IMG/VR virus record: IMGVR_UViG_3300046787_000353
Coordinates: 1-64,000 of that record
DNA: 64,000 bases
Reading direction: 5' to 3' (one strand)
Source: a virus
Taxonomy: Duplodnaviria; Heunggongvirae; Uroviricota; Caudoviricetes
Below are positions 23,586 to 46,471 of the stretch, piece after piece; position 1 is the first letter of the stretch; the number at the start of each line of letters is the position of its first letter. The notes beneath the pieces were generated by a model. That model saw only the letters and a list, made by a program, of their open reading frames with translations. It was not told where the DNA came from and ran no database searches. The position numbers were made by a program, and so were the translations under genes.

Positions 23586-25871
23586 CTAAGATTTTCTTAA
23601 AAACATCTCATTCATTGTTTTGGCAACTTCGAACATATTCTCCACGTTAACACTTTTTGCATCACGTCCGTAACATTGTTCGAATAATCTCCAAGCAGAT
23701 GTGTTTTTTACATCAGTATATTCACTAATAAAATATGATAATACATTAATACCAGCCGATTGCATCTTCTTAATTTGCTTATTAGTATGTTTAGCGGCGG
23801 CAGGACCTGTATATTGAATACCATCTCCACCATTACTAATTGAATAACAAGGTTCACCATCGGAGAAGTTCAAGAAGTATGAATCAGAATCATTAGTAGC
23901 CGGTATCAATTGCTTCTGAATTGCTTCGAAACACAAACCTTCCGGTGTTGTATTATTTGCTCTTAGGATACCCATATAACGAGCGAACGTTCTAAAGTTA
24001 CCTTTACGAGAATCATATACAACAGCGATGTAAGGTAAAGAACGAGAACCACTATCGGTAGAACGAATGGATACCTGAACGTTGATGTTACGAGCCATTT
24101 CACAAGCCTTAACAATAGCCACAGTCGATGTGATTGCTTTCTTAATCTTAGAACCACTCATTGAACCAGAGTAGTCAATTGAGATATGAAGATTGGCTTT
24201 CTTATATTGGTCAACTTCTTTAGTGAAGAAAACGTTCTCGTTATCATATCCAAGCGAAGCAACCATTCTACCATCAATCTTACCTTTAGTAAGGCGAGAG
24301 TAAACTGTTTCTCTACTTTCGTTACGAACTTGCAACTTCTTACCTAATATAGTTCCTAATGTGATACCTCTACGAACCTCATCTTCTGCCCACTTTTGTG
24401 GTTCACCACTTTTCCAATCTACCGAACTGAATGGAAAATCTTTATCTGAAATCATTTTATCGGTAAGGTTCTTAACTACAATACAATCAACACCTTTGTT
24501 GTGTCCGTATCCATCTGGGTTGTAATCATTACCAACACGAACTAATTCAGTATCCGAAGCGGAGATGTTTTCTAACTTCTCAATTTCAGTTTTAGAAACT
24601 TGCTTTTTCTTAATCTTACCATCTAAAAACTCTTTTTGCTTTTTGATTTTGTTATCAAGTTGTTTCTTTTGGTTACCTGTCATTGATTGTTTACCTTTAA
24701 CATCACCCTTAGCCTCACCAGCGGGAGCTTCTGATGAATCTGATTCAGAAGGCGTTCCTTCCACATCACCGGCATCCATATTGATACCACTTCCATTACC
24801 ATCGCCATCGGATTCTCCATTAGATTCTCCACTACCTTCACCATCTTCACTTTCGGTGGTTTCACCATCCGATTCACCATCGCCTTTATCTTTTTGCTTT
24901 TGGCCGCCAGATGCGTCTGGCAATTCAATATGATTTAAGATTTCGGTAACAACATCAATTGAAAGATTAAATGCATCTTCCGTTGATTTCAAACGTTCGA
25001 TGTTACTTAAATTGATTAATCGATAAATTGCTCTCAAACCTTTTAATTTAGAAAGGTCAGTTTCTTCATTGTGAAGGTTGATGATTCTAAACATATAAGA
25101 ATCGATAGTTTCATCGGTATATTCATCCGAAGCGATTCCCTTAGTAATCATCTTATCATTAAAGTAATGGTCATACATCGATGAATAGTAATCTCTATAA
25201 CCAGGTGCCGAATTGTAGATGTATTGGTCAATACGTCTGTCCTCAATCCAGTTGGTTAATTGTCCAACTAATGTTTCAATCTCTTTATTGATGGTGATTT
25301 TTGAACCAATCTTACCTGATTTCAAAAACATCTCAGCGAATCCAGCTTTGTATTTTAAACCATCAATTTTTTGTAAAATAGCGTTATCAATATAGTCATC
25401 ACTATATGGGATTGGATATCCATTCTCAATTGCTTCTTTGTTTTGAATAGCCGCATTACTTCTAAGATATCGAATGGTATCGGTAATACTACTCATTTCA
25501 GATAACAAACTAAAATCGGATAACACAATGTGTGAACCCTCATGCAATGCTAAACCAACGGAAACATCAAAGTTATCATCCACATCAGCGGAAAGGATAA
25601 CTCTCTTACCATCAGTCATTGAATCTGATTTGGTAGCGAATGTAACCGGAATACTTTTTTGTGTAACAATTTGAACGAAATTGGAGATAGCTCTCCTCGT
25701 TGCTGATAACTTATACAAGTCATTTGTTTTCTTAAATGCCGATAACTTATCTTCATCTAAATCACTATACTTGTCTAAGTAATCGTATGATGTATTATAC
25801 TCATCATACCAATATGAACTAGCGGATTTCTTTTGAACACCACCACTTTTTAATCTGTTGTACCAACTCAT
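23586..25871 (-). CDS. von Willebrand factor A (vWA) domain protein with acidic low-complexity tract (CobT-like partner of the MoxR ATPase)
   Basis: MIDAS motif DYSGSMSG (DxSxS). Central region DKGDGESDGETTESEDGEGSGESNGESDGDGNGSG. Adjacent to the AAA+ MoxR gene. Confidence 0.8.
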   Translation of the reverse strand: MSWYNRLKSGGVQKKSASSYWYDEYNTSYDYLDKYSDLDEDKLSAFKKTNDLYKLSATRRAISNFVQIVTQKSIPVTFATKSDSMTDGKRVILSADVDDNFDVSVGLALHEGSHIVLSDFSLLSEMSSITDTIRYLRSNAAIQNKEAIENGYPIPYSDDYIDNAILQKIDGLKYKAGFAEMFLKSGKIGSKITINKEIETLVGQLTNWIEDRRIDQYIYNSAPGYRDYYSSMYDHYFNDKMITKGIASDEYTDETIDSYMFRIINLHNEETDLSKLKGLRAIYRLINLSNIERLKSTEDAFNLSIDVVTEILNHIELPDASGGQKQKDKGDGESDGETTESEDGEGSGESNGESDGDGNGSGINMDAGDVEGTPSESDSSEAPAGEAKGDVKGKQSMTGNQKKQLDNKIKKQKEFLDGKIKKKQVSKTEIEKLENISASDTELVRVGNDYNPDGYGHNKGVDCIVVKNLTDKMISDKDFPFSSVDWKSGEPQKWAEDEVRRGITLGTILGKKLQVRNESRETVYSRLTKGKIDGRMVASLGYDNENVFFTKEVDQYKKANLHISIDYSGSMSGSKIKKAITSTVAIVKACEMARNINVQVSIRSTDSGSRSLPYIAVVYDSRKGNFRTFARYMGILRANNTTPEGLCFEAIQKQLIPATNDSDSYFLNFSDGEPCYSISNGGDGIQYTGPAAAKHTNKQIKKMQSAGINVLSYFISEYTDVKNTSAWRLFEQCYGRDAKSVNVENMFEVAKTMNEMFLRKS

Positions 25872-31470: not shown

Positions 31471-31471
31471 G

Positions 31472-31557
31472 CGGAAGGAGTAGGATTCGAACCCACGGTA
31501 CCTTTCAGTACACCTGATTTCAAGTCAGGCGCGATAGACCAACTCTGCCATCCTTCC
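31472..31557 (-). tRNA. tRNA-Ser (anticodon TGA), type II with long variable arm
   Basis: Acceptor GGAAGGA/TCCTTCC, anticodon loop CTTGAAA, T-arm GTGGG-TTCGAAT-CCCAC. Confidence 0.8.
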
Positions 31558-33937: not shown

Positions 33938-34132
33938 TTAATCTTCATCTTCAATTTCATCGGCAAATAGTTCATACTGAACTTCATCCGGTATATGTGA
34001 ATACCCATATACATCTAAATTGTAATCATTTGCCCAATCTTCTTTAGCCATTGCCTTTGCTTCTTCTTCTGAATTAGCTTCATAAATGTTATCAACATAG
34101 ATTATGATTTTGCCTGTAACACTATATTCCAT
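33938..34132 (-). CDS. small acidic protein (64 aa)
   Basis: Minus-strand ORF. Confidence 0.35.
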   Translation of the reverse strand: MEYSVTGKIIIYVDNIYEANSEEEAKAMAKEDWANDYNLDVYGYSHIPDEVQYELFADEIEDED

Positions 34133-34589
34133 ATTCTAATATTTTAGTTCTTAATGCGAATAATGCTTTATTGAAATCTTCAAATAATGGGATGTTATAT
34201 CGAGTACATACTACTCCAACATTTCCTTTTCTCCAAAACTCATCCGGACAACATACAATCATCTTTCTGTCATTGGCATGCAATCCTAATTCTAATAAGG
34301 ATATTGGTGATTTAGTTTCAGGTGAGAAGTTCATAAATATGATACCACAATTTTCCATTGCGTTCATCTCCCAATTCACTTGCTCATTGAATTGAACACT
34401 ATCATGCGACCAACTACTATCCCAATCATCTCTACGAGGATTAAAGAATGTTACATCTACATCTTTAAATTCATTTTCTACTCTCTTCTGCCATTCTTCA
34501 GCTGCTCCCATTTCAATAGAGCCTGCTAAAAAGATACCAACATTGAACTTTTGAGTATCGGTACTTCCTGGTTTAATTATTTGTGCCAT
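34122..34589 (-). CDS. Nucleoside 2-deoxyribosyltransferase-like protein (Rcl/DNPH1-type fold)
   Basis: GIFLAGSIEMG near the N-terminus and SLLELGLHANDRKMIV (catalytic Glu context) fit the family pattern. Confidence 0.55.
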   Translation of the reverse strand: MAQIIKPGSTDTQKFNVGIFLAGSIEMGAAEEWQKRVENEFKDVDVTFFNPRRDDWDSSWSHDSVQFNEQVNWEMNAMENCGIIFMNFSPETKSPISLLELGLHANDRKMIVCCPDEFWRKGNVGVVCTRYNIPLFEDFNKALFALRTKILEYGI

Positions 34590-34590
34590 A

Positions 34591-36129
34591 CTATTTTAAT
34601 CTTTCTTTAATTTCAGTTAAGGTCGTTTGATTGTAGAATGTACCATCTTTATAGATTGTTTGTAAAAACCCTCTACCTTCACCCTCCCAAGTTACTTTAT
34701 CAAATAACACATATTCACCATCGGTATTTTTATCAACCCACAACAAGCCTGTTGCTGATTTCTTAGTTCCATCATCAGTAATAGGGTCTTTGAAGATTTC
34801 TCTACCAACACCATCTACTTCAACATAAGTTGCTTTCATTGCGAATCCAAAAGTATCACGAGTGTTATACTGATATGTGAATGAACCAATGCCCAATACA
34901 ACGTTTGTAGATGCGAACCCTTTTGCTTCTAACCGAGCGCAGATTTCATTCGCCCGTCCAATTGTGATTGAATCACCATAAATGGCTCCAATGTGAGAGT
35001 CTAAAACTTTGTAACCTTGCTCATTGATTGTTCCACCAAATACATCCCAAAGTAATTCAATAACACCTTTATATTGATTAGGAGTAACTACCTTTCCTTC
35101 ATTGTATTCTAACTCCCCATAAAAATCTACTAAATAATTTCCATTTTCATCTTGTAGTTCCTTATAATCGGTTCTATTCCAAGAATGACCTCTATCACCA
35201 CATAAAATATCAATTGGGTCACCACTATCAGGTCTGATTACCAATTTACCATCTCTTGCTAAGATTTCTTCTTTAAGAGTAACGATATGCTCGGTACATA
35301 CCTTCCATAAATCCCACGTATCACTTACAACTGATAAAATACCTTTTGGATAAGTTTCTAATAATCTACGGAATGTCCCAACCTCATCATCTTTACTTCC
35401 TGCACACATTACACTATGTTCGGTTGCGTTTACTGAACCTCCAACGAATCCTTCTTCACCATAGAACTTTCTTGCTCCGTAAATAGCAGGTAAACTATCA
35501 GTTCCACTAAATGATGTTAAGTGTCCTAATCCACTAGCGATTGTAGCTTCAACTGAATCCATACCTCTCATTGAGAAGTCATGTCCTTGCCAATCAACAA
35601 ACCAACCCTTTTCAGCATCGGTCTTTTCTTGCCACTTAGTTAATACCTTACGATAGGTATGTGCAATGGTAGCAGATGTCATTGGTTTCCATAGTAAATT
35701 GGAAATGATTGTTTCTAAGTAGTTTGTTACCCAATAGAACTCTGGCAATGTATTGTAGATTGTTAATACAGGTACTTTCATTGGAACTAATGTACCTTCT
35801 TCAATTGCTTTTACATTGATAGGTAAATAACCTAAATCATGCAATTGTTCAAAATGAGTAACATCATAATCAGTTCCTAAATATAATGATAATTCACGTT
35901 TCATTTCTCCACAAACTTCATCTTTTGGTTTAGAGAAAAACTCCTTCTCAAATGCTTCGTGGATTTGTTTCATAATCATTTGTTGTCCAAATGATACTAC
36001 GTTATCACACCCAGTTGGTGCGTATTTGTTACTTCTCGGTGTGAAGTTAGAATATACTAATGTAGTTCCTTGCGGGTATTGTTGGTGGTGACCTGTTTTG
36101 TAACCATCTGTCAGTAATAGTGGATTCAT
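34591..36129 (-). CDS. nadV: Nicotinamide phosphoribosyltransferase (NAMPT/NadV)
   Basis: MNPLLLTDGYKTGHHQQYP, HDFSMRG and VIRPDSGDP motifs are shared with NAMPT. Confidence 0.9.
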   Translation of the reverse strand: MNPLLLTDGYKTGHHQQYPQGTTLVYSNFTPRSNKYAPTGCDNVVSFGQQMIMKQIHEAFEKEFFSKPKDEVCGEMKRELSLYLGTDYDVTHFEQLHDLGYLPINVKAIEEGTLVPMKVPVLTIYNTLPEFYWVTNYLETIISNLLWKPMTSATIAHTYRKVLTKWQEKTDAEKGWFVDWQGHDFSMRGMDSVEATIASGLGHLTSFSGTDSLPAIYGARKFYGEEGFVGGSVNATEHSVMCAGSKDDEVGTFRRLLETYPKGILSVVSDTWDLWKVCTEHIVTLKEEILARDGKLVIRPDSGDPIDILCGDRGHSWNRTDYKELQDENGNYLVDFYGELEYNEGKVVTPNQYKGVIELLWDVFGGTINEQGYKVLDSHIGAIYGDSITIGRANEICARLEAKGFASTNVVLGIGSFTYQYNTRDTFGFAMKATYVEVDGVGREIFKDPITDDGTKKSATGLLWVDKNTDGEYVLFDKVTWEGEGRGFLQTIYKDGTFYNQTTLTEIKERLK

Positions 36130-36165
36130 AATTTATCTTTTTAATTATATTCAAATATACGAAAT

Positions 36166-36603
36166 TTATACGGGATTTCCTAATCTATCGGTGGGTTTTT
36201 TATACATTGTTACAACCATTCGTAAATCATCATAAACCTGCTTCAACCCAGCTCTATCATCCAATAGTGCTGAAAAGAATGGTTTACGGGATTCCCAACC
36301 CAAATCGATACCATCCGTATTGATACCATCGCAAGGGATACCATTATCCTTCAAATACTTTTCAACAAATTCCAAATCCTTTTGGGCTGTCCAACAAATC
36401 AACTTACAATTCATCTCCTTCAAATCTCGCAGTAATTCAACTACATAATCATAGGTTGCCCCAGTTTGATGGTAATCATATACCGTACCATCGAAATCAT
36501 ATCCAATGGTAAGTGAACCATATTTTCTATACTCATCCATCAATCTTCGTAAAGATTTGCCGGTTTCTAAATATTCATCAGTACGTGTCATATTAAAATA
36601 CAT
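36166..36603 (-). CDS. small HAD-superfamily hydrolase-like protein
   Basis: DFDGTVYD (HAD motif I). Confidence 0.45.
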   Translation of the reverse strand: MYFNMTRTDEYLETGKSLRRLMDEYRKYGSLTIGYDFDGTVYDYHQTGATYDYVVELLRDLKEMNCKLICWTAQKDLEFVEKYLKDNGIPCDGINTDGIDLGWESRKPFFSALLDDRAGLKQVYDDLRMVVTMYKKPTDRLGNPV

Positions 36604-37456
36604 TTAATTGTTTTGTATTGGTTTTAACTCCATATTCATCATCTGCTACATCTCTGTAACTATTGGTACAATAGATACCATCGAAGTATCTGTTTAACTC
36701 CTCAAATCCGGCACTAAAGATACCATGTGTAACGATTAAATAAACTGAAGCGGTTGCTCTACTATCTTTGATTGCCTTAGCAAGTTCAATGAATGTTCTA
36801 CCACCATCACAAATATCATCTATGATTACATATTTCAATTTATTATGCTGGTCCAAAGTTGGGATTTCCGTTCTAAGAATTTTACCCGTTTTCATATCTC
36901 TAACTTTTGTAGCGGTTATGATTTTCTCAATACCAAACTCCTTAGCTACATCGAATATTTTCTTATATGCTCCTGCATCAGGTGATACCAATACCACATC
37001 TTCTTCCTCACCATCTTTAATCAAATAAGAAAGTGCATCATCAACTAATTCAAAGTTATTTTTTTTAGTGTAGTTGTTCAAACATGCTTCCAATACATCC
37101 GAATGAGGGTCTAAGACAGTAACATCTTTAAAGTTCTGTGAATTTATAATCGGGCAGATAACTTGCTTTAAATAGTTAACTCCGCCTCTTAGGAATTGTC
37201 TATCAGAACGAGAACCTAAGAAATAAGGAACTGCTAATGATATATTGGTAATACCCAAGTTTAACAATGCCTGATTAGCACATATAATCAATTCTAAATC
37301 TTTAAAATTGTTCAATCTACTTATAATTGTAATGGGTGATTTGTAATCCACAATGGTATTAATATCAATATCAATAGTCTGTTGACCATCTGGAAATTGA
37401 GAAATACGAAATTTTGGATTACTCTTATCGGGGTTAACTAAGTTTAAATAGCTCAT
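36593..37456 (-). CDS. prs: Ribose-phosphate pyrophosphokinase (PRPP synthetase)
   Basis: LAVPYFLGSRSDRQ aligns with PYFGYARQDRK, VLVSPDAGAYKK with VVVSPDVGGVKR, and YVIIDDICDGGRTF with the PRPP-binding VIVDDMVDTGGT motif. Confidence 0.85.
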   Translation of the reverse strand: MSYLNLVNPDKSNPKFRISQFPDGQQTIDIDINTIVDYKSPITIISRLNNFKDLELIICANQALLNLGITNISLAVPYFLGSRSDRQFLRGGVNYLKQVICPIINSQNFKDVTVLDPHSDVLEACLNNYTKKNNFELVDDALSYLIKDGEEEDVVLVSPDAGAYKKIFDVAKEFGIEKIITATKVRDMKTGKILRTEIPTLDQHNKLKYVIIDDICDGGRTFIELAKAIKDSRATASVYLIVTHGIFSAGFEELNRYFDGIYCTNSYRDVADDEYGVKTNTKQLNVF

Positions 37457-37527
37457 TATCTTATAACTTTTAATTTATTAATATACTCAAATATACGAAA
37501 TATAAGTGAGATAGCCAAATATTTTAA

Positions 37528-37558
37528 CAAAAAAAGAGCAACTATTTTAGTTGCTCTT
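37528..37558 (-). terminator. rho-independent terminator after the RNA ligase gene
   Basis: agagcaact/agttgctct hairpin plus a U-run. Confidence 0.6.
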
Positions 37559-37563
37559 TCAAT

Positions 37564-38706
37564 TTAGTGAGAATCGCCTACATTGTGTTTCTCTCCGTAG
37601 ATTAAATAATCAGGGTTGATTACTTTAGCTACTTTTTGTCTTTCACCTGTATAGTATTTGATTACAATTCCTTCCTCTGGCACTTTAGAACCTTTGATGA
37701 AGTTGTTGAATACAAAACTATCTTGTACATCTTGCGACCATTTGCCAAAATACAATATTGGAACGTATGGTAAATCTAAAAATTCAAATGTGCTATTAGC
37801 ATTCATTGGTGTCATATATTTACCATCAACCGTAATATCGAATCCAGCAAAATCAATAGTATCTAATCCATACTCATAGTTCTTTTGAACCCCTTTACCA
37901 TAGATTTCACCATAGATTACAAACCCACTACCAATTTCTTCTGGACTATATGTAGCCCTTACGATTTGCCATAACTTACGTTTGATATCTAAATCATTCG
38001 CAATGTTATACCAAACGTTTGTATCATAGAAACCTTGTGAGTCTGAACCTTTCTCCACATTGTGAGAACCAACCACATATTCGTAGTCAATCCAACCGTC
38101 GGCCAATCCAAAGAATTTCTTAACTTTATCAAAGAATGATAATTTGGTTTTTTTACAAATACCATATCTTGCATTAGTTCCGTGAATCTTACGAGTGATT
38201 TCCACAAAGTCGTCTTCGGTAAACATTCCAGCTACGTTTTTCAAATTCGGAAATTTGTAGTAGATATGGAAGTTTGGATTATCTTTGTATTTAATCTTTC
38301 TACCACTTGCCAATTGAATTTGTTTAACAGGTGGTTCAAATTTACTAACACCAAAGATATCCATACAATCGCTACCTTCTTTCAAATCCCAATCTCCCAT
38401 AGTAGTTCTACCATGTAAGTATTTATGTGGAATGATTAAACATTCTGAATATACACCTCTTAACTTTACAGTCCTAACTCTATTACCTTTACGAAGATAG
38501 CTTGTTACACCCATCTCTTCCGATAAGCCTTCCGGAATTACAGCATCGGTGGTTGCGATGATTACATTATCACCTACGATTTGTTCACCTTTTTTGCTAA
38601 TACAATTCCACCCACCTGCTACGATTAACTCAATGTTATCTGCTCCTGGGATTTCTCTTACTTCGTTTACTTTTGCAACGAAACAAACTGAATTTTGATT
38701 TTCCAT
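37564..38706 (-). CDS. ATP-dependent RNA ligase, Rnl2 (T4 RnlB)-like, with N-terminal tRNA-binding-like OB region
   Basis: Nucleotidyltransferase motif I RKIHGTN equals T4 Rnl2 EKIHGTN. Residues 10-50 (AKVNEVREIPGADNIELIVAGG...EQIVGDNV) resemble the Myf/EMAP tRNA-binding domain pattern. Confidence 0.75.
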   Translation of the reverse strand: MENQNSVCFVAKVNEVREIPGADNIELIVAGGWNCISKKGEQIVGDNVIIATTDAVIPEGLSEEMGVTSYLRKGNRVRTVKLRGVYSECLIIPHKYLHGRTTMGDWDLKEGSDCMDIFGVSKFEPPVKQIQLASGRKIKYKDNPNFHIYYKFPNLKNVAGMFTEDDFVEITRKIHGTNARYGICKKTKLSFFDKVKKFFGLADGWIDYEYVVGSHNVEKGSDSQGFYDTNVWYNIANDLDIKRKLWQIVRATYSPEEIGSGFVIYGEIYGKGVQKNYEYGLDTIDFAGFDITVDGKYMTPMNANSTFEFLDLPYVPILYFGKWSQDVQDSFVFNNFIKGSKVPEEGIVIKYYTGERQKVAKVINPDYLIYGEKHNVGDSH

Positions 38707-38717
38707 TTCTTATATCT

Positions 38718-38948
38718 TTATTTTAAGAACCATTCAAATGATTGCTTGATTATTGATAAATTAACTTCTTGACAGATTACCCATTTTATCCAAGCCAATG
38801 GCCAAAATAAGAAATCTATAAATGCCCAAAAACCACTTTGGTTAATGGTATATCCGATTATAGCTGTTGGTAATGCGAATATAATGTTTGGTAATGATAC
38901 CGGTCTGATTGAAATTGTTCTTTTTGCCATCTTATTTAATTTTTTCAA
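38718..38948 (-). CDS. small membrane protein (76 aa)
   Basis: Two hydrophobic segments. Confidence 0.4.
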   Translation of the reverse strand: MKKLNKMAKRTISIRPVSLPNIIFALPTAIIGYTINQSGFWAFIDFLFWPLAWIKWVICQEVNLSIIKQSFEWFLK

Positions 38949-39657
38949 ATGTAGGTTTTAACCACAATATGTTGTTTTTGAATATATAATCTCTTAATTT
39001 TGGATTCTGATTAAGTATCTCTAATGTTTTCAATGTATCATGTTTGAAACACTTTAATAACTCTTCTCTGATTCTCTCAATTGATACCACTCCCATCTTA
39101 CCTTCGTAGTCAAAGTTGTATATGAAGTAATCTAAGTATGATAATCTAAATCCCTTCGTGATAGAGAACCTAATTGCTCTTATAATACGAAGTGGGTCAT
39201 CTTCAAATGTTACTTTGGGTGCCAATGGTGTTATCAATATCATACGTTCTAAATCCATTTGACCATTAAACAAATCAATTAGATTACCATCTTCATCTTC
39301 CGCCATAGCGTTGACTGTAAAATCTCTACGAATCAAATCATCTTCCAATGTTCCCAATTCTAAGATTGGTCTACGAGTCCCTTCCACATACCCAACTTCC
39401 TTTCTTGCCATTACAAAATCGGCAACCATTCCAGCGTATTTATGTTCTTTGGGAAATTTAGCACGGATAGTAAAACAATCAGGTGTAGAAAGGAATATTT
39501 CAAATTCATTATGTTCCAACCATTTGGTCATAATATCAAATCCTTCCTCCACTGTCCTATCTAAGTTGTCCAAAACAAATGTGAAGTCAATATCATTTGT
39601 ATCAACCCCTAACAATCTATCTCTAACACAACCTCCTACTTTAAATATCTTTGGCAT
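38932..39657 (-). CDS. cca: tRNA nucleotidyltransferase (CCA-adding enzyme), minimal head+neck form
   Basis: GGCVRDRLLG...DIDF and LEDDLIRRDFTVNAMA..DGNLIDLFNG...DL match class-II CCA enzyme motifs. Confidence 0.85.
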   Translation of the reverse strand: MPKIFKVGGCVRDRLLGVDTNDIDFTFVLDNLDRTVEEGFDIMTKWLEHNEFEIFLSTPDCFTIRAKFPKEHKYAGMVADFVMARKEVGYVEGTRRPILELGTLEDDLIRRDFTVNAMAEDEDGNLIDLFNGQMDLERMILITPLAPKVTFEDDPLRIIRAIRFSITKGFRLSYLDYFIYNFDYEGKMGVVSIERIREELLKCFKHDTLKTLEILNQNPKLRDYIFKNNILWLKPTFEKIK

Positions 39658-39681
39658 AATCTCTCATTTTTTATTACATAG

Positions 39682-39713
39682 TAAAGATACAAAATTAGAT
39701 TGATATTGCCAAA
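39682..39713 (-). promoter_or_regulatory. promoter, class 1
   Basis: Minus-strand TTTGGCAATATCAATCTAATTTTG-TATCTTTA upstream of the ATG at 39657. Confidence 0.55.
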
Positions 39714-39732
39714 TATTTTAACATTTATTTAA

Positions 39733-40116
39733 CTATAACATCAATTGAAATCTATCTCTCATTTGTTTTAATTTATCATCCGGCACTCCATGCTCATTTA
39801 CTCCCCCATGTCTATTTTCTACTACTAATGAATATACTCTGTATCCATGTTCTTTAGCTAATTCAAAGTAATAATCCATTTCCCAAGTCTGAGTAAATGT
39901 ATTTGATACTACTATCTTTTCAGTGTTATTTGTCATCCAAACTCTTACTGCATTTTGACACCAAGCGTGAGCTTCTTTTAATTTAGAAGCATCAAATTTA
40001 TATTCACCTTTGTCTATAAAATACTTATCGGCCTCCATGTGTGAACCTCCTAATGACTTTGCCAATGTTGATTTACCACTTCCCGGCAATCCTCTTAATA
40101 AGAATAATTCTTTCAT
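39733..40116 (-). CDS. P-loop kinase, polynucleotide 5'-kinase (T4 Pnk kinase-domain)-like
   Basis: Walker A GLPGSGKST (T4 Pnk has GCPGSGKST). About 127 aa. Sits next to the RNA ligase and CCA genes. Confidence 0.55.
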   Translation of the reverse strand: MKELFLLRGLPGSGKSTLAKSLGGSHMEADKYFIDKGEYKFDASKLKEAHAWCQNAVRVWMTNNTEKIVVSNTFTQTWEMDYYFELAKEHGYRVYSLVVENRHGGVNEHGVPDDKLKQMRDRFQLML

Positions 40117-42016: not shown

Positions 42017-42113
42017 AACTCTCTTATTTTTTATTACATAGTAAATATACGAAATTCAAATGAGATTGCCAAATAAAACACAAGTTATTTTTGAAAAAAT
42101 GATAGTAATATTG

Positions 42114-42184
42114 TTACCCGAGCAGGATTCGAACCTACCCTAACTGCACCAAAAACAGTTGTGCTACCGCTACACCATCAGGCA
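42114..42184 (-). tRNA. tRNA-Gln (TTG)
   Basis: Acceptor TGCCTGA/TCGGGTA, D-stem GTGT/GCAC, anticodon loop TTTTGGT, T-arm GTAGG-TTCGAAT-CCTGC. Confidence 0.7.
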
Positions 42185-42318
42185 AAATTCTCAAGCATTC
42201 TACTTCCCGCAGCACGAAATTGTATCTTACTTAGCCCATCGTTGGCGGTATGGGTACTTGAGTTATTGTAAATGAACAAAACCTATTGTTCTTTTGGCTT
42301 TTTACATAAGCCCATTTG

Positions 42319-42390
42319 AGCAGGTATTCGGACTCGAACCGAAATCTCCGACTTGGAAGGCCGGAACACTAACCATTGTGCTATACCTGC
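42319..42390 (-). tRNA. tRNA-Gly (TCC)
   Basis: Acceptor GCAGGTA/TACCTGC, anticodon loop CTTCCAA, T-loop TTCGAGT. Confidence 0.8.
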
Positions 42391-42451
42391 ATGCATCCCG
42401 TTACTCGTGCACGAGCGGTGGCACTACGGGACCGATGTTATTCCACTATCG

Positions 42452-42523
42452 AGCGAGAGATGGGGTTCGAACCCACGACCCTCACCTTGGCAAGGTGATG
42501 CTCTACCGCTGAGCTACTCTCGC
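42452..42523 (-). tRNA. tRNA-Gly (GCC)
   Basis: Acceptor GCGAGAG/CTCTCGC, anticodon loop TTGCCAA. Confidence 0.8.
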
Positions 42524-42659
42524 AAATTGTGTAGGATGCGCCCACCTACACCACACTTTTAGTAGTATGTTGCCACGCTACCACGTTTCGAGTTGTTTAA
42601 CGACCTACTCTGAATGTCAGCCGCCAGGGTGTGCTTCACGTTAAACCCGGAGACGCTTA

Positions 42660-42736
42660 TGGTGGACCAGATAGGGCTCGAACCTATGACCTACTGATTA
42701 TGAGTCAGGCGCTCTAACCAACTGAGCTACAAGTCC
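42660..42736 (-). tRNA. tRNA-Met (CAT), CCA encoded
   Basis: Anticodon loop CTCATAA. 3' end is ...CTGGTCC-A-CCA. Confidence 0.75.
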
Positions 42737-42875
42737 AATTAAGAGAAGCTTGGGTCTTTCGGGGTTACTGATTGAGTGCAATAAGTGAGCTCTTCCTACT
42801 ATTAACCCTTTTTCGGAAATCAATACACTCTACTTCTCAATTACAGCTATACTACTTCTCTTTTGTGGAGCTACT

Positions 42876-42948
42876 CGGATTCGAACCGAGGATTCCTGCG
42901 TGCAAGGCAAGTGTGTTAGCCAACTATACCATAGCCCCAAATTTGGAT
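42876..42948 (-). tRNA. tRNA-Ala (TGC)
   Basis: Acceptor GGGGCTA/TAGCTCC, anticodon loop CTTGCAC. Confidence 0.75.
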
Positions 42949-42996
42949 AGATATGGTTCTATCCGGACCAGAACATTCTCCCTAGGGAGATGCCAG

Positions 42997-43081
42997 TATC
43001 GGAGGTGGGACTCGAACCCACACGACCCCTTCGGGTCAATGGATTTTAAGTCCATCGGGTCTACCATTCCCCCACTCCGAT
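42997..43081 (-). tRNA. tRNA-Leu (TAA), type II
   Basis: Acceptor ATCGGAG/CTCCGAT, anticodon loop CTTAAAA, long variable arm. Confidence 0.75.
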
Positions 43082-43212
43082 AGTTCACTTTACATTCCAA
43101 AGTGTAAGTAGGTTTAGTTGTGGACTTTCCTTCCAGTAGAACTCTCATTTTATTGATTATCGGGTCTGTTATTCTACAATTTTAACGTATTGACCATACA
43201 CGTTGAGTATCG

Positions 43213-43290
43213 CTGTCAGGGCCGGACTCGAACCGGATAAGCAACCACTTTATTGGATTTGGGACCATCCCGCATTACGCCCACCTAACA
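43213..43290 (-). tRNA. tRNA-like gene, anticodon undetermined (good acceptor and T-arm; D and anticodon arms irregular); possible pseudo-tRNA
   Basis: Acceptor TGTTAGG/CCTGACA, T-arm CCGG-TTCGAGT-CCGG. Confidence 0.35.
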
Positions 43291-43292
43291 AT

Positions 43293-43535
43293 TTAATATC
43301 CTATTTCATCTTTAATTTTCCATTGGGTATCAATTGGAATTCGTTCAATTCTTTCAACTGGAACAAACCCATCAAACCCACTTTCTTTAACATCTTCAAA
43401 ATGTTCAATGGTATCCAAATAGAAACCGAATGAATATCTGATGTATTGGAATTTATCACCATCCCAATATGCCACATGGTTGTTTCTACTAAACCCATTA
43501 TACCAGCCTTCTTTCATTTCATTTTTTGGTATCAT
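43293..43535 (-). CDS. hypothetical protein (80 aa) embedded in the tRNA island
   Basis: ORF between the tRNA-like gene and tRNA-Arg with no tRNA overlap. Confidence 0.4.
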   Translation of the reverse strand: MIPKNEMKEGWYNGFSRNNHVAYWDGDKFQYIRYSFGFYLDTIEHFEDVKESGFDGFVPVERIERIPIDTQWKIKDEIGY

Positions 43536-43551
43536 ACTCTTTTATTTTTTG

Positions 43552-43625
43552 TGAACCCATCAGGAATCGAACCTGAAACCTACACATTAGAAGTGTGTTG
43601 CTCTATCCAATTGAGCTATGGGTCC
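43552..43625 (-). tRNA. tRNA-Arg (TCT)
   Basis: Anticodon arm ACACA-CTTCTAA-TGTGT, T-loop TTCGATT. Confidence 0.8.
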
Positions 43626-43630
43626 AGTTG

Positions 43631-43703
43631 CGGGACCGACGGGAGTTGAACCCGCTCCATACTCCGTGACAGGGAGATATCTTAACCGTTTGACCTCGGC
43701 CCC
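43631..43703 (-). tRNA. tRNA-Asp (GTC)
   Basis: Acceptor GGGGCCG/CGGTCCC, anticodon loop CTGTCAC, T-loop TTCAACT. Confidence 0.75.
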
Positions 43704-44081
43704 AAATTTGATAGGTGACCATCCTATCGTGAAATGATATACCATTTCTTTTCTTTATAGAATCCGAAGATACTGCAGGAACATTTTTTAGCACCCTCTT
43801 TCTTATCCCGCTTATAGATTTTACGCCATAAGAATTGCGGTAAGAGTAGGGTCAAGCTGAGAACTCATTTGTGTTGTCTTGTCAGTATCAAAACTCCTGC
43901 ACCAAGCTTGCCAAATCGTATTCCTTTCTCAAGGGAACAACACATCTACCATTACTGATAGTATCTTTATGTAAATTATTGCCAGTTCCTCAAATATCTA
44001 AAGATACTGTTCTATTGTTTCTGCGTTATCAATTTCAAACGTTTGGAATAATTTACAAAGGTATTCAATGTTTAACCTATT

Positions 44082-44154
44082 GAGCCTTCTGTCGGATTCG
44101 AACCAACGACCTGCTGATTACAAATCAGCGGCTCTACCAGCTGAGCTAAGAAGG
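44082..44154 (-). tRNA. tRNA-Thr (TGT)
   Basis: Acceptor GCCTTCT/AGAAGGC, anticodon loop TTTGTAA. Confidence 0.8.
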
Positions 44155-44210
44155 CATTTAATAATCAAAGTGTATTCTTCCCTTTCTACTACCGAACCAC
44201 CCTCACCAGG

Positions 44211-44235
44211 TAGTTCAGGTGGGAGTCGAACCCAC
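44211..44235 (-). other. tRNA 3' fragment (T-arm GTGGG-TTCGACT-CCCAC plus 3' acceptor strand), a remnant lacking a 5' body
   Basis: T-arm-like motif only 18 nt from the 3' end of tRNA-Glu, with no room for D and anticodon arms. Confidence 0.4.
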
Positions 44236-44253
44236 ATTCTCTTTAATTATTTG

Positions 44254-44325
44254 TAGCCCGTAGGGGAGTCGAACCCCTCTTTCCAGAATGAAAACCTGAC
44301 GACCTAACCGATAGTCGAACGGGCC
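44254..44325 (-). tRNA. tRNA-Glu (TTC)
   Basis: Acceptor GGCCCGT/ACGGGCT, anticodon loop TTTTCAT, T-arm AGGGG-TTCGACT-CCCCT. Confidence 0.75.
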
Positions 44326-44382
44326 TACTTAATTACTATCACTATTTCAAAGAACTATCGGAGTATTACCGATTTTGTTTTA

Positions 44383-44420
44383 CAAATATACGAAATATAT
44401 TTTACATTTCCTAATATTTT
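44383..44420 (-). promoter_or_regulatory. promoter, class 2 (TTAGGAAATGTAAAATATATTTCG-TATATTTG); a 49-nt exact repeat of 48393..48441
   Basis: Exact -7 TAnnTTTG, with TTAG in place of the -33 TTTG. Lies upstream of 44422..44886. Confidence 0.5.
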
Positions 44421-44421
44421 T

Positions 44422-44886
44422 TTACATTTTTACTAAATGGTCAGCGCAATATGTTGCCATTGTTCCAAATGTTTTATATCTCACTTTATATCCCATTCCT
44501 TCAACCATACCAACCGCTTGTCTGAACACTTCGTTTGATTTATACTTAGGGTCTGGGTTCAAATCCACATCAATCCAAGTTGCTTTCTGAATACCTGCTT
44601 TTTGTAAATCTTCAGCGGTTTCAACTGCGAACCAAACTTCATTTAACAATCTTACAGAACGAGTCCACTCTCTTTGAGCTGCCCATTTCCTATAAAGAAC
44701 GTGTGCTCCTCTTCCTGGTGTGTATAGTGCTACTACAATCGCATATATAGTTTTATCTTTACTATTTTGCGAATCACACCCTACCAATATTTCAATGTTC
44801 GGGTTTGATACAATATAATCTTTGATATATGTATCCAATTCGACCTGAGTCCCATCTTGTAATTTCCTATAAACCATAATCATCAA
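44422..44886 (-). CDS. hypothetical protein (154 aa) within the tRNA island
   Basis: Clean ORF flanked by tRNAs with its own promoter motif. Confidence 0.55.
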   Translation of the reverse strand: MMIMVYRKLQDGTQVELDTYIKDYIVSNPNIEILVGCDSQNSKDKTIYAIVVALYTPGRGAHVLYRKWAAQREWTRSVRLLNEVWFAVETAEDLQKAGIQKATWIDVDLNPDPKYKSNEVFRQAVGMVEGMGYKVRYKTFGTMATYCADHLVKM

Positions 44887-44892
44887 ATTTTG

Positions 44893-44965
44893 TACTCATA
44901 GAAGGATTCGAACCTTCAAAAACTGGGTTCTAAAGCCAGTGCGGTTACCAGTTACGCCATACGAG
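44893..44965 (-). tRNA. tRNA with anticodon TAG (nominally Leu-CUA) but type I (short 5-nt variable arm); atypical
   Basis: Acceptor GCTCGTA/TATGAGT, D-loop AACTGGTAA, anticodon loop TTTAGAA, T-arm GAAGG-TTCGAAT-CCTTC. Confidence 0.55.
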
Positions 44966-44981
44966 CAATTAATACTATCTG

Positions 44982-45062
44982 CGGAGGGCAGAGTAATCGA
45001 AACTCGACCTTTTACAATCATCGGTTTAGCAAACCGACTACAACACCCGTTGCTTACCCTCC
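44982..45062 (-). tRNA. tRNA-Ser (GCT), type II
   Basis: Acceptor GGAGGGT/GCCCTCC, anticodon arm TCGGT-TTGCTAA-ACCGA, 14-nt variable arm. Confidence 0.75.
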
Positions 45063-45069
45063 TTTTTTG

Positions 45070-45144
45070 GGTGAAAAATGGGCTTCGAACCCACAACCTT
45101 CCGAATCACAATCGGATGCTCTAACCAGTTGAGCTATAATCACC
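45070..45144 (-). tRNA. tRNA-His (GTG) with G-1:C73
   Basis: Anticodon arm TCCGA-TTGTGAT-TCGGA, D-arm GCTC-AACTGGTTA-GAGC, an extra 5' G pairing with discriminator C. Two U-U mismatches in the acceptor stem. Confidence 0.65.
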
Positions 45145-45212
45145 ATATTTTGTATAATATATTATCCATTTATCCCTAAATACCAGGTTTTTGTATAGTA
45201 TATTATACATCG

Positions 45213-45282
45213 TTGCATGTATGAGGTTCGAACTCATTTGGCCATCCTTATGAGAGATAACTCTTTTCCACTAAGCCATGCA
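45213..45282 (-). tRNA. tRNA-like gene, anticodon CAT (Met/Ile2-like) with weak D and anticodon stems; possibly degenerate
   Basis: Acceptor TGCATGG/ACATGCA, T-arm ATGAG-TTCGAAC-CTCAT, anticodon loop CTCATAA. Confidence 0.4.
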
Positions 45283-45349
45283 ATTTGTGGAATCGAACCA
45301 CTTTCCCAACTCTACGTCGGGCGATATATCCAATATCCTTCACCGGTTG

Positions 45350-45420
45350 AGTTAAGTGTTGGATTCGAACCAACGTATAAGGGTTTGCAGTCCTTCGCCT
45401 AACCACTCGGCCAACCTAAC
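45350..45420 (-). tRNA. tRNA-Cys (GCA)
   Basis: Acceptor GTTAGGT/ACTTAAC, anticodon loop CTGCAAA, T-arm GTTGG-TTCGAAT-CCAAC. Confidence 0.7.
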
Positions 45421-45488
45421 ATTTAGTCTATTGTTATCTGAATATTGGTAGTATTACTACTATTATTGGATAATAATTAAACTTATTG

Positions 45489-45560
45489 TATCTCCGGAGA
45501 GAATCGAACTCCCATTTACCGGTTCGTAGCCGATTGTTCTATCCGTTAAACTACGGAGAT
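45489..45560 (-). tRNA. tRNA-Arg (ACG)
   Basis: Perfect acceptor ATCTCCG/CGGAGAT, anticodon loop CTACGAA. Confidence 0.8.
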
Positions 45561-45563
45561 ATC

Positions 45564-45830
45564 CTATCTATACTTTCGTATCATTTCAAACACCTTGCCA
45601 ATATCAGTTAATTTCATAATTTGGTCATTTCTGATTGGTAAGAATGCGATGGTGAATCCGTGGTTACCTTGAAAGAAATCTTCTCTCTTTATCCTATTCC
45701 CATTTACTTTTTCAAGGTATATCCAAGGATAGTTTCCAGCTAATTCCACTTCAATACCAATTTTTCTCAATCTCGGAACTAACCGATTTATTACATTATC
45801 TTCCATTGTGTCTTTCTGTTGTGTTTCCAC
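45564..45830 (-). CDS. hypothetical protein (88 aa)
   Basis: Minus-strand ORF abutting the 5' end of tRNA-Arg(ACG). Confidence 0.45.
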   Translation of the reverse strand: METQQKDTMEDNVINRLVPRLRKIGIEVELAGNYPWIYLEKVNGNRIKREDFFQGNHGFTIAFLPIRNDQIMKLTDIGKVFEMIRKYR

Positions 45831-45985
45831 GTTTTGTAACTTCTATACTTTGCCGAAGAATGTCCTTTTTTAAAGTTCAATCCTTCATCCCAATACGGAG
45901 GATACTCCATATCTAGCCAAATTAATCTGTAATGTTTGGAACAAGTTGCTTTGTTCAATCTCTGTCTGTTAGTTTTTACACTCAT
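45791..45985 (-). CDS. hypothetical basic protein (64 aa); possibly the N-terminal part of a frameshifted or split gene with 45564..45830
   Basis: ORF overlapping the downstream ORF by 40 nt in another frame. Confidence 0.3.
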   Translation of the reverse strand: MSVKTNRQRLNKATCSKHYRLIWLDMEYPPYWDEGLNFKKGHSSAKYRSYKTWKHNRKTQWKIM

Positions 45986-46052
45986 TTTTGCTCAATTTTA
46001 GGTTAATAAACCTAATGAGCATCGAATTTCTTTTTCATAATTTTACATTTAG

Positions 46053-46121
46053 CACGGATTGAAGTAATCGAAACCTCTCCTATGGATTTGGAGTCCATTT
46101 GGCTACCTTAGCCTAACCCGT
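46053..46121 (-). tRNA. tRNA-Trp (CCA)
   Basis: Acceptor ACGGGTT/AATCCGT, anticodon arm ATGGA-CTCCAAA-TCCAT, T-loop TTCGATT. Short D-loop. Confidence 0.6.
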
Positions 46122-46181
46122 ATTTATGTTTCATAGTTTATATGTGAGTTTAAACCTTACTACGTTACTATGAAACATCAG

Positions 46182-46255
46182 TTGGAATAGTGGGACTCGA
46201 ACCTACAACCCCCGCCGTATCAGGGCGGTGCGCTAACCAATTGCGCCATATTCCA
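46182..46255 (-). tRNA. tRNA-Ile (GAT)
   Basis: Acceptor TGGAATA/TATTCCA, anticodon arm CCGCC-CTGATAC-GGCGG. Confidence 0.8.
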
Positions 46256-46261
46256 ATATTG

Positions 46262-46337
46262 TCGGGTGAGCAGGATTCGAACCTGCGTGCTCTCGCGTCC
46301 AAGGCGAGCGAGATAAACCTGACTCCTCTACCACCCG
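46262..46337 (-). tRNA. tRNA-Pro (TGG)
   Basis: Anticodon arm CTCGC-CTTGGAC-GCGAG, T-arm GCAGG-TTCGAAT-CCTGC. Confidence 0.75.
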
Positions 46338-46391
46338 TTGGTGGATGGATTATTTTTTTAAAGTAGAATTCGCCAACCTCAAAACTACTAT

Positions 46392-46465: not shown

Positions 46466-46471
46466 CATTAT

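Follow-up and report, generated by a model that had tools for sequence, protein, structure and literature searches.

A probable four-gene variant of the NARP1 operon in a phage genome, with HAD phosphatase and PF15891 genes beside the Adps/Namat core

Gene content and arrangement of the block

The window, which is the whole 64,000-nucleotide stretch of DNA analyzed here, derives from a large AT-rich phage. The features considered in this work are listed from upstream to downstream.

37490..37560, minus strand: intergenic region upstream of the Adps-type gene, with a terminator-like hairpin and promoter-like sites
36593..37456, minus strand: Adps-type gene (287 amino acids, Prs-like fold), predicted first enzyme of NARP1
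36166..36603, minus strand: gene of a capless (C0) HAD-superfamily phosphatase (145 amino acids), a proposed accessory phosphatase
34591..36129, minus strand: Namat-type gene (512 amino acids, NAMPT-like fold), predicted second enzyme of NARP1
34122..34589, minus strand: PF15891 (Nuc_deoxyri_tr2) gene (155 amino acids, nucleoside deoxyribosyltransferase-like fold), a proposed accessory glycosidase/transferase
33938..34132, minus strand: orf64, encoding a very acidic protein of 64 amino acids and overlapping the PF15891 stop by 11 nt

An earlier note, made from the nucleotide sequence, had read four genes in this block, and all four open reading frames are present on the minus strand at the coordinates that it gave, closely packed, together with the peptides that it quoted. 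The HAD gene starts 11 nt inside the end of the Adps-type gene, so that its start overlaps the Adps stop. It is followed by a gap of 36 nt before the Namat-type gene, and the PF15891 gene begins 1 nt past the Namat stop. HAD is translationally coupled to Adps, and PF15891 abuts Namat. The Adps-type and Namat-type genes are on the same strand and one gene apart; Osterman et al. reported Namat within 10 genes for 97% of Adps-clade genes. The small orf64 is possibly cotranscribed with the block. It had no Pfam or PHROG match and no homologue across the related loci, and its membership of the NARP1 block is doubtful.

Upstream of the block, a terminator-like hairpin (37560..37532), consisting of a 13-bp stem and a subsequent T-run, follows the RNA ligase gene. 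Downstream of the hairpin, the region 37527..37490 contains two 9/12 matches among promoter-like sites, which overall did not exceed the shuffled expectation. This arrangement is only suggestive of a transcription unit of the block's own, apart from the RNA ligase gene.

Assignment of the two core enzymes

The 287-amino-acid protein contains PYFLGSRSDRQ and VIIDDICDGGRTF and had been described earlier as a PRPP synthetase (Prs). In profile searches it matched Pribosyltran PF00156 (E=4e-7), as the earlier note had anticipated, and phrog_619 (E=8e-69); no match was found to PF13793, which that note had also proposed as a check. On the generic Prs model TIGR01251, which has a cut-off of 113 bits, it reached only 87.5, compared to 98.3 for ICP1 Adps, 83.9 for the NotTheCreek protein, 118.8 for that of Bas60 and 422.7 for E. 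coli Prs, and its scores on all equivalog Prs models were far under the respective cut-offs. Alignments by blastp gave 127-148 bits against Adps reference proteins (127 bits and 37% for ICP1 Adps) and 45 bits and 24% against E. coli Prs, the single true Prs that served as an outgroup. The PP loop reads DDICDGGRTF, similar to DDICDGAASF in ICP1 Adps, where Prs has DDMIDTGGTL; the loop is thus DGGRT and not the ribose-5-phosphate DTGGT of Prs. An aromatic residue is retained at the position equivalent to F92, K185, R87, H121, D161, D212 and D213 are conserved (residue roles according to PMC13586617), and the C-terminal alpha11-12 helices of Prs are absent. Since the protein falls below the Prs threshold and within the score range of ICP1 Adps, with the true Prs at 423 bits, we assign it by sequence to the Adps type (ADP-ribose pyrophosphate synthetase), as which it behaves in these comparisons, rather than to canonical Prs.

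The 512-amino-acid protein contains MNPLLLTDGYKTGHH and the catalytic RPDSGDP. It matched NAPRTase PF04095 (E=4.5e-37), in agreement with the earlier note, as well as NAMPT_N and phrog_448 (E=1e-196). That note had named it NadV, a nicotinamide phosphoribosyltransferase. This name does not fit the alignment scores, which reached 536 bits against the crystal structure of SpβL1 Namat (PDB 9W5X/9W5W) and 216-229 bits against human, rodent and bacterial NAMPTs, nor the presence of a Namat-specific adenine clamp. The clamp motif, GSFTYQYNTRD, is identical to the same stretch of SpβL1 Namat and was recognized by the selectivity pattern GS-X-Phi-X-Phi-X-Phi-TRD with an aromatic residue at positions 3 and 7. 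Residue R40 in the SCL of SpβL1 Namat is replaced by Lys, in a loop described as variable in the SpβL1 Namat paper. The model NF006629 scored above its cut-off (552 bits), but it also accepts the validated ICP1 Namat and therefore cannot discriminate. By sequence, the protein is accordingly classed as Namat type, a predicted nicotinamide ADP-ribose transferase.

The open reading frame at 5384..5851, proposed earlier as an NMN adenylyltransferase (NMNAT), is present and encodes a CTP_transf_like protein of 155 amino acids (E=3e-15). It matched ethanolamine-phosphate (E=1e-19) and glycerol-3-phosphate (E=1e-16) cytidylyltransferases best, and it carries the TagD-type motif TFDLLHTGH. Of 80 related loci, only one has this gene together with the block. 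No NMNAT structure was matched at E<=0.01, and NMNAT models gave 16-18 bits against cut-offs of 112-201. We reject it as an NMNAT and regard it as a TagD/ECT-like cytidylyltransferase. Probing the whole window with NadM-Nudix and NadE fusion proteins retrieved only the HAD gene and no NadM- or Nudix-like open reading frame, a search that covered the 64 kb of the window; the genome may be much larger, given that related contigs reach about 290 kb.

Accessory genes, proposed pathway and alternative explanations

The small HAD phosphatase recognized in the earlier note was confirmed: all four catalytic HAD motifs on the Rossmannoid fold (DxDxT, S/T, K and DD) are present in the 145-amino-acid protein and invariant. 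The protein has no close characterized counterpart. Around homologues of at least 50% identity, Adps is located upstream in 21 of 26 loci and abuts HAD in 18 of these. The arrangement persists at Adps identities of only 34-41% and despite differences in gene order, and the cultured Bacillus phage NotTheCreek has the order Adps-Namat-HAD. Members of the HAD family are fused with PF15891, with NadE (two proteins) and with NMNAT-Nudix. HAD is coupled to a NARP2 operon in one locus (L025) and lies beside Macro, with NADAR close by, in two others.

In closely related operons, a Macro/Adpp gene takes the slot after Adps in place of HAD. Macro was present in one of 21 loci with HAD versus 25 of 39 without it (Fisher p=6e-6, with phylogenetic relatedness ignored and the groups composed of loci gathered through different query proteins). 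Seven published Adpp sequences were made into an HMM, which had no match in the 64-kb window and matched in 43 related loci. HAD is thus nearly exclusive with the Macro phosphatase Adpp and usually occupies the same position; the two co-occur in three loci (L026, L028 and L029).

The 155-amino-acid protein at 34122..34589 had been described as deoxyribosyltransferase-like. It matched PF15891 (112.6 bits, cut-off 30, E=1.4e-32 in a profile search); PF05014, which the earlier note had named, gave 22.3 bits, under the cut-off of 28.8. Profile searches did not reach characterized NDTs, and the protein has no close characterized counterpart; E100 (in LLELG) is placed as the NDT nucleophile by motif position only. 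A Namat-like gene is present, usually close by, in 69 of 80 related loci, and one homologue (P0243) is a PF15891-HAD fusion. Six cultured-phage or megaphage genomes encode homologues of about 40% identity that do not adjoin NARP1. The block proteins had no Pfam match to an RyR domain; RyDEP represents a family described as previously uncharacterized, and the search was conducted at the level of Pfam models.

Taken together, we consider it quite probable that the block is a four-gene NARP1 variant with an Adps/Namat core and HAD and PF15891 as accessory enzymes. We infer the core pathway from homology to validated enzymes, and the participation of HAD and PF15891 from genomic association. Because a Prs-like enzyme of Adps type is combined with a NadV-like enzyme of Namat type, the predicted route is ADPR to ADPR-PP to NAD+. 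A host defense NADase of the SIR2, TIR or SEFIR type would split NAD+ into ADP-ribose and nicotinamide. With ATP as the donor of a beta,gamma-pyrophosphate group, Adps would then pyrophosphorylate ADP-ribose at its free ribose, and Namat would replace the pyrophosphate of ADPR-PP by nicotinamide, yielding NAD+ directly; neither PRPP nor NMN nor an NMN adenylyltransferase would have a part in this route. As a hypothesis, HAD would most likely take a phosphate off a phosphorylated derivative of ADP-ribose and make it usable by Adps, with ADPR-1''-phosphate from RES-type defenses as the leading candidate and HAD as a non-homologous stand-in for the Macro Adpp of NARP1-AP. PF15891, likewise as a hypothesis, would most likely act on a molecule derived from NAD+ by cleaving or exchanging its ribosyl-linked group, to give ADP-ribose or nicotinamide. 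The earlier proposal that the block regenerates NAD+ against NAD+-depleting defenses is plausible in this respect, as homologous two-gene operons were shown to do so (10.1101/2024.02.11.579819), but its chemistry from nicotinamide via NMN to NAD+ is refuted on that note's own terms, and the route through ADPR-PP fits without any NMNAT.

Alternatively, a true Prs could provide PRPP to a true NAMPT, with the NMN formed converted into NAD+ by the product of 5384..5851, as in NARP2-like or classical salvage. Family-level Pfam and NCBIfam names, including the NF006629 score, are compatible with this, Namat enzymes still make some NMN from PRPP in vitro, and the cytidylyltransferase gene lies beside the block in one relative (L002). 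We regard this explanation as highly improbable and largely refuted by the sequence already, given the sub-threshold Prs score and Adps features of the first enzyme, the clamp and Namat affinity of the second, the uninformative NF006629 match, the ECT/TagD-like character of the cytidylyltransferase and the fusion probes, which recovered only HAD. Moreover, NARP2 phages have no Prs homologue (Osterman et al.). It is also improbable, if less so, that the block is a plain two-gene NARP1 with two passengers, HAD being the 3'-phosphatase of the neighboring RNA-repair module (RNA ligase, CCA-adding enzyme and kinase-only Pnk) and PF15891 an N-glycosidase of the nucleotide pool, in the manner of DNPH1 or MilB. 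Some annotators of Bacillus phages labeled a HAD homologue "polynucleotide kinase", the Pnk-like kinase of the window lacks a phosphatase domain, the RNA-repair genes are immediate neighbors, two close HAD homologues adjoin thymidylate synthase without NAD genes nearby, and the PF15891 homologues of cultured phages are in nucleotide-metabolism or tRNA regions. However, the conserved neighbor of HAD is Adps, whereas RNA ligase/kinase genes are near HAD only in the four closest loci, and three loci (L060, L082 and L105) have RNA ligase and kinase near NARP1 without HAD. In NotTheCreek, no RNA-repair gene is annotated less than 5 kb away from the Adps-Namat-HAD genes, every informative HAD fusion partner is an NAD enzyme, and the terminator-like hairpin of the window lies between the RNA ligase gene and Adps. 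The PF15891 subclade, for its part, is associated with Namat in most loci and fused to HAD in one protein.

A more serious alternative, possible though not favored, retains both accessory genes in NAD+ reconstitution, with a HAD that is not an Adpp analogue. The substrate of HAD may be a more general one, such as 2'-phospho-ADPR, NADP+ or pyrophosphate: the enzyme could remove 2'-phosphates and thereby lead the NADP pool to NAD+, or hydrolyze the PPi released by Namat, Nampt, NMNAT and NadE and thereby pull these reactions forward. A more general substrate is suggested by the co-occurrence of HAD with Macro/Adpp in three loci, which speaks against simple redundancy, and by its presence with NARP2 and NadE, which need no removal of ADPR-1''P; NARP1, NARP2 and the NadE and NMNAT-Nudix fusion partners all make NAD+ and release pyrophosphate. 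In addition, aRES is already overcome by NARP2 without a phosphatase. On the other hand, HAD is usually in the Macro/Adpp slot and nearly exclusive with Macro, and the fusion with PF15891 is left unexplained. Inorganic pyrophosphatase is already abundant in cells, and capless HADs usually act on bulky substrates, both of which argue against this alternative.

The core of the block corresponds to published NARP1, and the two conserved accessory genes are new; we found no report in the literature linking HAD or PF15891 to NARP1. It is possible, though less likely than not, that they constitute two new classes of NARP1 accessory enzymes that convert a non-canonical NAD+ breakdown product or an NAD+-derived immune signal into a NARP1 substrate, with HAD as a non-homologous replacement of Adpp and PF15891 acting, as a ribosyl hydrolase or base-exchange enzyme, on an ADPR species with an N-linkage (a cyclic ADPR isomer or His-ADPR, for example). 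In that case, their presence would indicate host defenses with NAD+ chemistry that needs undoing, possibly including one not yet described. Each of the previously reported NARP1 accessory genes, Macro Adpp (against aRES) and RyDEP (against cADPR signals of Thoeris), brought to light a different way in which hosts manipulate NAD+. By the same logic, the substrates of HAD and PF15891 could disclose an independent second answer to a defense already known, or an unknown NAD+-derived product or signal. Members of both families accompany NARP1 in dozens of uncultured phages, HAD also in cultured Bacillus phages, and routine labels mislead here (PRPP synthetase, nicotinamide phosphoribosyltransferase and, for HAD, "phosphoheptose isomerase"). 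The genes are small, and experimental systems exist: E. coli or B. subtilis with aRES, SIR2-HerA and Thoeris, as well as Wphvirus phages.

Comparison with known systems

NARP1, consisting of Adps and Namat, is known from phages Bas63, SpβL1, Fado and ICP1 (10.1101/2024.02.11.579819; PMC12774641; PMC13586617). The block described here likewise combines Adps-type and Namat-type genes in one operon with the same predicted chemistry, and it has the same clamp as SpβL1 Namat, along with the PP loop and catalytic Lys of Adps. It differs in having four genes instead of two, with HAD between the core genes and PF15891 after Namat, in an Adps only 37% identical to ICP1/Bas60 Adps and in the Lys replacing SCL Arg40.

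The NARP1-AP operon of Vibrio phage Gary has the order Adps, Macro-domain (Poa1p-like) phosphatase Adpp, Namat (10.64898/2026.01.28.702374). Like our block, it has a core of three genes in which a phosphatase gene stands between those of Adps and Namat, and relatives of the window with an Adps of about 69% identity (e.g. L046) have a Macro/Adpp homologue in the HAD slot. The phosphatase of the window, by contrast, has a HAD fold (DxDxT, Mg2+-dependent, aspartyl-phosphate chemistry) unrelated to Macro in sequence and mechanism, and both occasionally co-occur. Among structures, BT0820-family minimal HAD phosphatases (PDB 2obb) are 24% identical to HAD, and the uncharacterized PF15891 structure 4mcj (BDI_0649) is 37% identical to the PF15891 protein, both being structural-genomics entries without an assigned substrate.

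NARP2 of Vibrio phage KVP40 (Nampt and NMNAT-Nudix) also restores NAD+ during infection by use of a NAMPT-family enzyme. Unlike the window, with its Prs-like Adps and no NMNAT found in 64 kb, NARP2 lacks a Prs homologue and depends on an NMNAT, and its Nampt enzymes lack the adenine clamp present in the Namat of the window. Finally, mycobacteriophage DyoEdafos carries RyDEP within its NARP1 operon, a glycosidase that turns an NAD+-derived immune signal, 2'/3'cADPR, into ADPR for Adps (PMC13232231). It sets a precedent for an accessory enzyme in a NARP1 operon, to which the role proposed for PF15891 would be analogous. The two differ in fold: RyR-Repeat12 for RyDEP, and for PF15891 an NDT/TIR-like flavodoxin fold in which a Glu is conserved.

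Core enzymes of the block

The block at 34122..37456 had been read in the earlier note as a salvage route leading from a PRPP synthetase (Prs) through NadV to a possible NMNAT encoded at 5384..5851. Its four minus-strand ORFs are present, together with the peptides quoted from them, as follows.

36593..37456, minus strand: Prs-like protein (Adps type), 287 aa
36166..36603, minus strand: HAD protein, 145 aa; its start overlaps the preceding Adps stop by 11 nt
34591..36129, minus strand: NAMPT-like protein (Namat type), 512 aa; 36 nt beyond the HAD gene
34122..34589, minus strand: PF15891 protein, 155 aa; begins 1 nt past the NAMPT-like stop

In profile searches, the NAMPT-like protein matched NAPRTase and NAMPT_N (E=4.5e-37) as well as phrog_448 (E=1e-196), and the Prs-like protein matched Pribosyltran (E=4e-7) and phrog_619 (E=8e-69). 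The suggested NAPRTase and Pribosyltran assignments were thus confirmed; PF05014, suggested for the 155-aa protein, stayed below threshold, and PF15891 (Nuc_deoxyri_tr2) matches instead (E=1.4e-32). A megablast search of the block DNA against 50,697 phage records gave no match, indicating that the window phage has no close cultured relative. A very acidic 64-aa ORF (33938..34132, minus strand) runs into the end of the PF15891 gene, with an 11-nt overlap at the stop codon. We observed no family match in Pfam or PHROG for it and no homologue in the related loci; it may encode a small inhibitor or a mimic of DNA, unless it is not a gene.

A phage Prs-like gene beside a NAMPT-like gene is the hallmark of NAD+ reconstitution pathway 1 (NARP1), and those annotations are misleading (Osterman et al., 10.1101/2024.02.11.579819). 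According to the same work, Adps pyrophosphorylates ADP-ribose (ADPR) with ATP, Namat converts the resulting ADPR-PP and nicotinamide directly to NAD+, and NARP1 is functional in hosts without pncC and nadR. We checked both core proteins against the published discriminating features. The top PDB matches of the window Namat are the SpβL1 Namat structures 9W5X and 9W5W, at 536 bits compared to 216-229 bits for human, rodent and bacterial NAMPTs. Its clamp motif, GSFTYQYNTRD, is the same as in SpβL1, whereas Arg40 in the variable loop of SpβL1 Namat is replaced by Lys; the second-best structural relative, PDB 9KE8/9KEO, has a non-aromatic clamp.

On the generic Prs model TIGR01251 (curated cut-off 113), the window Adps scored 87.5 bits, next to 98.3 for ICP1 Adps, 83.9 for NotTheCreek, 118.8 for Bas60 and 422.7 for Escherichia coli Prs. 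By blastp it is 37% identical both to ICP1 Adps (127 bits; reference sequence taken from the ICP1 genome record), for which a structure and activity have been published (PMC13586617), and to Bas60 Adps (148 bits), and 24% identical to E. coli Prs (45 bits). In alignments, the PP loop reads DDICDGGRTF in the window, DDICDGAASF in ICP1 and DDMIDTGGTL in Prs. The window Adps lacks the C-terminal helices of Prs, and it retains the aromatic equivalent of ICP1 Phe92 and the catalytic Lys185 (roles from PMC13586617). The PDB search with this protein reached true Prs chains only (best E=9e-12). By these features of Namat and Adps, the pair agrees with NARP1 in every respect that can be judged from sequence, and on this basis the window core is another member of the already published NARP1. 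As a caution for annotation, validated Namat enzymes exceed the cut-off of the NCBIfam "equivalog" NF006629 (nicotinate phosphoribosyltransferase).

The Prs/NadV/NMNAT chemistry proposed earlier was not borne out, since the core fits NARP1, which does not need an NMNAT, and the product of 5384..5851 (minus strand, 28 kb from the block) fails as one. It carries a TagD-type TFDLLHTGH motif and matches ethanolamine-phosphate (E=1e-19) and glycerol-3-phosphate (E=1e-16) cytidylyltransferases; it matched no NMNAT structure at E<=0.01 and scored 16-18 bits on NMNAT and NadR models with cut-offs of 112-201. When a NadM-Nudix-HAD fusion and a HAD-NadE fusion were used as probes against all window ORFs, the HAD gene was the sole match. 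We rejected the cytidylyltransferase as a member of the system, as it belongs to the TagD/ECT family and adjoins the block in 1 of 80 surveyed loci. In the related IMG/VR locus L002, a cytidylyltransferase of 88% identity (9391..9837) lies directly between the PF15891 and RNA ligase genes. The biological conclusion drawn earlier, that the phage may regenerate NAD+ against NAD+-depleting defence, stands.

Genomic company of the HAD protein

The 145-aa protein had no Pfam match in a profile search, and its sequence profile reached no characterised enzyme in the PDB. The HAD motifs DFDGT, WTA, RK and LLDDR are invariant among its homologues, and we regard it as a genuine HAD phosphatase. Its PHROG, phrog_1238, is labelled "phosphoheptose isomerase", a label shared by RefSeq phage records and an annotation pitfall. 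Homologues occur in 81 records of cultured or assembled phages, Bacillus phages accounting for 54; NotTheCreek (Herelleviridae) has the order Adps-Namat-HAD, with the HAD gene under that same label.

We surveyed 33 IMG/VR loci encoding relatives, 26 of which hold a homologue at least 50% identical. Adps lies upstream of HAD in 21 of these 26, the stop-free reading frames of the two overlapping or abutting in 18 of the 21, and a Namat-like gene is also present in 22 of the 26. The linkage is kept even where Adps is only 34-41% identical, and under a different gene order (PF15891-Namat-Adps-HAD in L004). In a locus without NARP1 (L025, 9998..12677), a close HAD homologue is translationally coupled to a NARP2-type operon, an NMNAT-NUDIX fusion followed by a true NAMPT, which suggests that the same accessory phosphatase serves both reconstitution pathways. 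In L028 (9986..12578) a Macro/Adpp-like gene comes right after the HAD homologue and a NADAR domain protein is encoded two genes beyond, with no Adps or Namat within 10 kb; the locus looks like an ADP-ribose-processing cluster, and its near-duplicate L029 likewise has the adjacent Macro gene. In L016 and L030, which also lack NARP1, HAD adjoins thymidylate synthase.

Searched exhaustively, 1.84 billion representatives yielded 630 HAD relatives, of which the longer ones were examined for fusions. One (P0243) joins HAD to PF15891, uniting both window accessory genes in one polypeptide; two (P0332, P0371) join it to NAD synthase and one (P0286) to a NadM-type NMNAT plus Nudix. Taken together, the loci and fusions point to an NAD+ or ADP-ribose theme in 24 of 26 HAD contexts and in 4 of 5 fusions with an identifiable partner. 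Some NARP1 operons also carry another, divergent HAD type that shares 27-30% identity with the window's, as listed below, with Macro/Adpp present as well in two of them (L052 and L098):

L044, 8030..8383: divergent HAD type
L052, 5727..6110: divergent HAD type
L098, 3891..4298: divergent HAD type
L103 and L107: divergent HAD type

Upstream of the block is an RNA-repair-like module (37564..40116):

37564..38706, minus strand: RNA ligase
38932..39657, minus strand: CCA-adding tRNA nucleotidyltransferase
39733..40116, minus strand: kinase-only Pnk-like AAA_33 protein

We considered whether HAD is the missing 3'-phosphatase of this adjoining module. Against this, the conserved neighbour of HAD is Adps, its fusion partners are NAD enzymes, RNA-repair genes are found near NARP1 also in the absence of HAD, and between the RNA ligase gene and Adps lies a terminator-like hairpin (37560..37532). 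The flanking RNA ligase and Pnk-like kinase of the window co-occur in the four closest loci only. Among 80 related loci, a CCA-adding enzyme (22), an RNA ligase (13) or a kinase (9) is encoded near NARP1; these genes may form a counter-defence island or merely share synteny. The window also encodes 25 tRNAs on the minus strand: 24 are clustered (42113..48643) just upstream of the RNA-repair and NARP1 genes, and a tRNA-Ser stands apart downstream (31471..31557). Other auxiliary-looking genes encode an S-adenosylmethionine lyase-family protein with DUF3293 (48889..49872), a MoxR AAA+ ATPase beside a weakly VWA/CobT-like protein (21974..25871), an SPFH/Band 7 protein (19654..20577), and a protein of 768 aa that has C-type lectin matches and weaker, cohesin-like ones (60847..63153).

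The PF15891 protein

Invariant residues of the PF15891 protein include the Glu of LLELG, which would lie at the nucleophile position of NDT-fold enzymes, and several arginines; its sequence profile reached no characterised enzyme in the PDB. We surveyed 80 IMG/VR loci whose homologues share 50-69% identity with it: a Namat-like gene is present in 69, usually nearby, and Adps in 54, several of the remaining loci being truncated contigs. The protein is found with either phosphatase type, HAD or Macro, or with neither. In the closest relatives, L002 (6982..8856), L003 and L007, an ORF of about 624 aa lies between Namat and PF15891; the window genes abut.

The link to NARP1 is confined to the window's subclade: NARP1 was not near the PF15891 homologues of about 40% identity in Lak phages and in five further cultured phages, those of Ralstonia, Stenotrophomonas, Alishewanella, Erythrobacter and Xanthomonas. 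Lak megaphages match both accessory proteins, and the one PF15891 copy checked was not near NARP1. A role as a general nucleotide-pool glycosidase, tenable for the wider family, fits poorly with the Namat linkage in the subclade (69 of 80 loci) and with the PF15891-HAD fusion. The most economical hypothesis for PF15891, though speculative and drawn by analogy with the glycosidase RyDEP (see below), would be a hydrolase of ribosyl bonds or a base-exchange enzyme, acting on an NAD+-derived molecule to release nicotinamide or ADPR.

Known and proposed accessory enzymes of NARP1 systems

We infer the functions of all block proteins from sequence, fold and gene neighbourhood. In the literature searched, mostly without the text of subscription journals, we found no HAD phosphatase or deoxyribosyltransferase-like protein tied to NARP1, and the NARP1 neighbours tabulated in the supplement of the aRES paper are all Macro proteins (Osterman et al. 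2026, 10.64898/2026.01.28.702374). A precedent for a glycosidase is RyDEP, which is encoded within a mycobacteriophage NARP1 operon and converts 2'/3'cADPR to ADPR (PMC13232231).

In NARP1-AP, the Macro-domain phosphatase Adpp is encoded between Adps and Namat and turns what the RES-domain defence aRES produces, ADPR-1''-phosphate, into ADPR (Osterman et al. 2026, 10.64898/2026.01.28.702374). We scanned all loci with an HMM built from seven published Adpp sequences. Of 60 unique complete NARP1 loci, 23 show the architecture Adps-Macro-Namat/PF15891 and 16 show Adps-HAD-Namat, with PF15891 present or absent; these are the two most frequent arrangements. One of the 21 loci with the window-type HAD carries Macro, as against 25 of the 39 that lack this HAD (Fisher p=6e-6, for loci that are mutually related and drawn from two different queries). 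In L046, whose Adps is 69% identical to that of the window, a Macro gene between Adps and Namat occupies the position of the window HAD. Against such displacement, HAD and Macro occur together in L026, L028 and L029. Phage AfhF, to which HAD is similar, was dropped as a chemical analogy because it takes the 5-phosphate, not the 1-phosphate, off arabinose 1,5-bisphosphate.

With NARP2 and NadE among its partners, HAD could instead have a more general kind of substrate, for example 2'-phospho-ADPR, NADP+ or pyrophosphate; we give this reading somewhat less weight than an Adpp-like role and put neither above even odds. Mainly on the displacement pattern between HAD and Macro, we tentatively propose that the HAD phosphatase may be a non-homologous functional analogue of Adpp.
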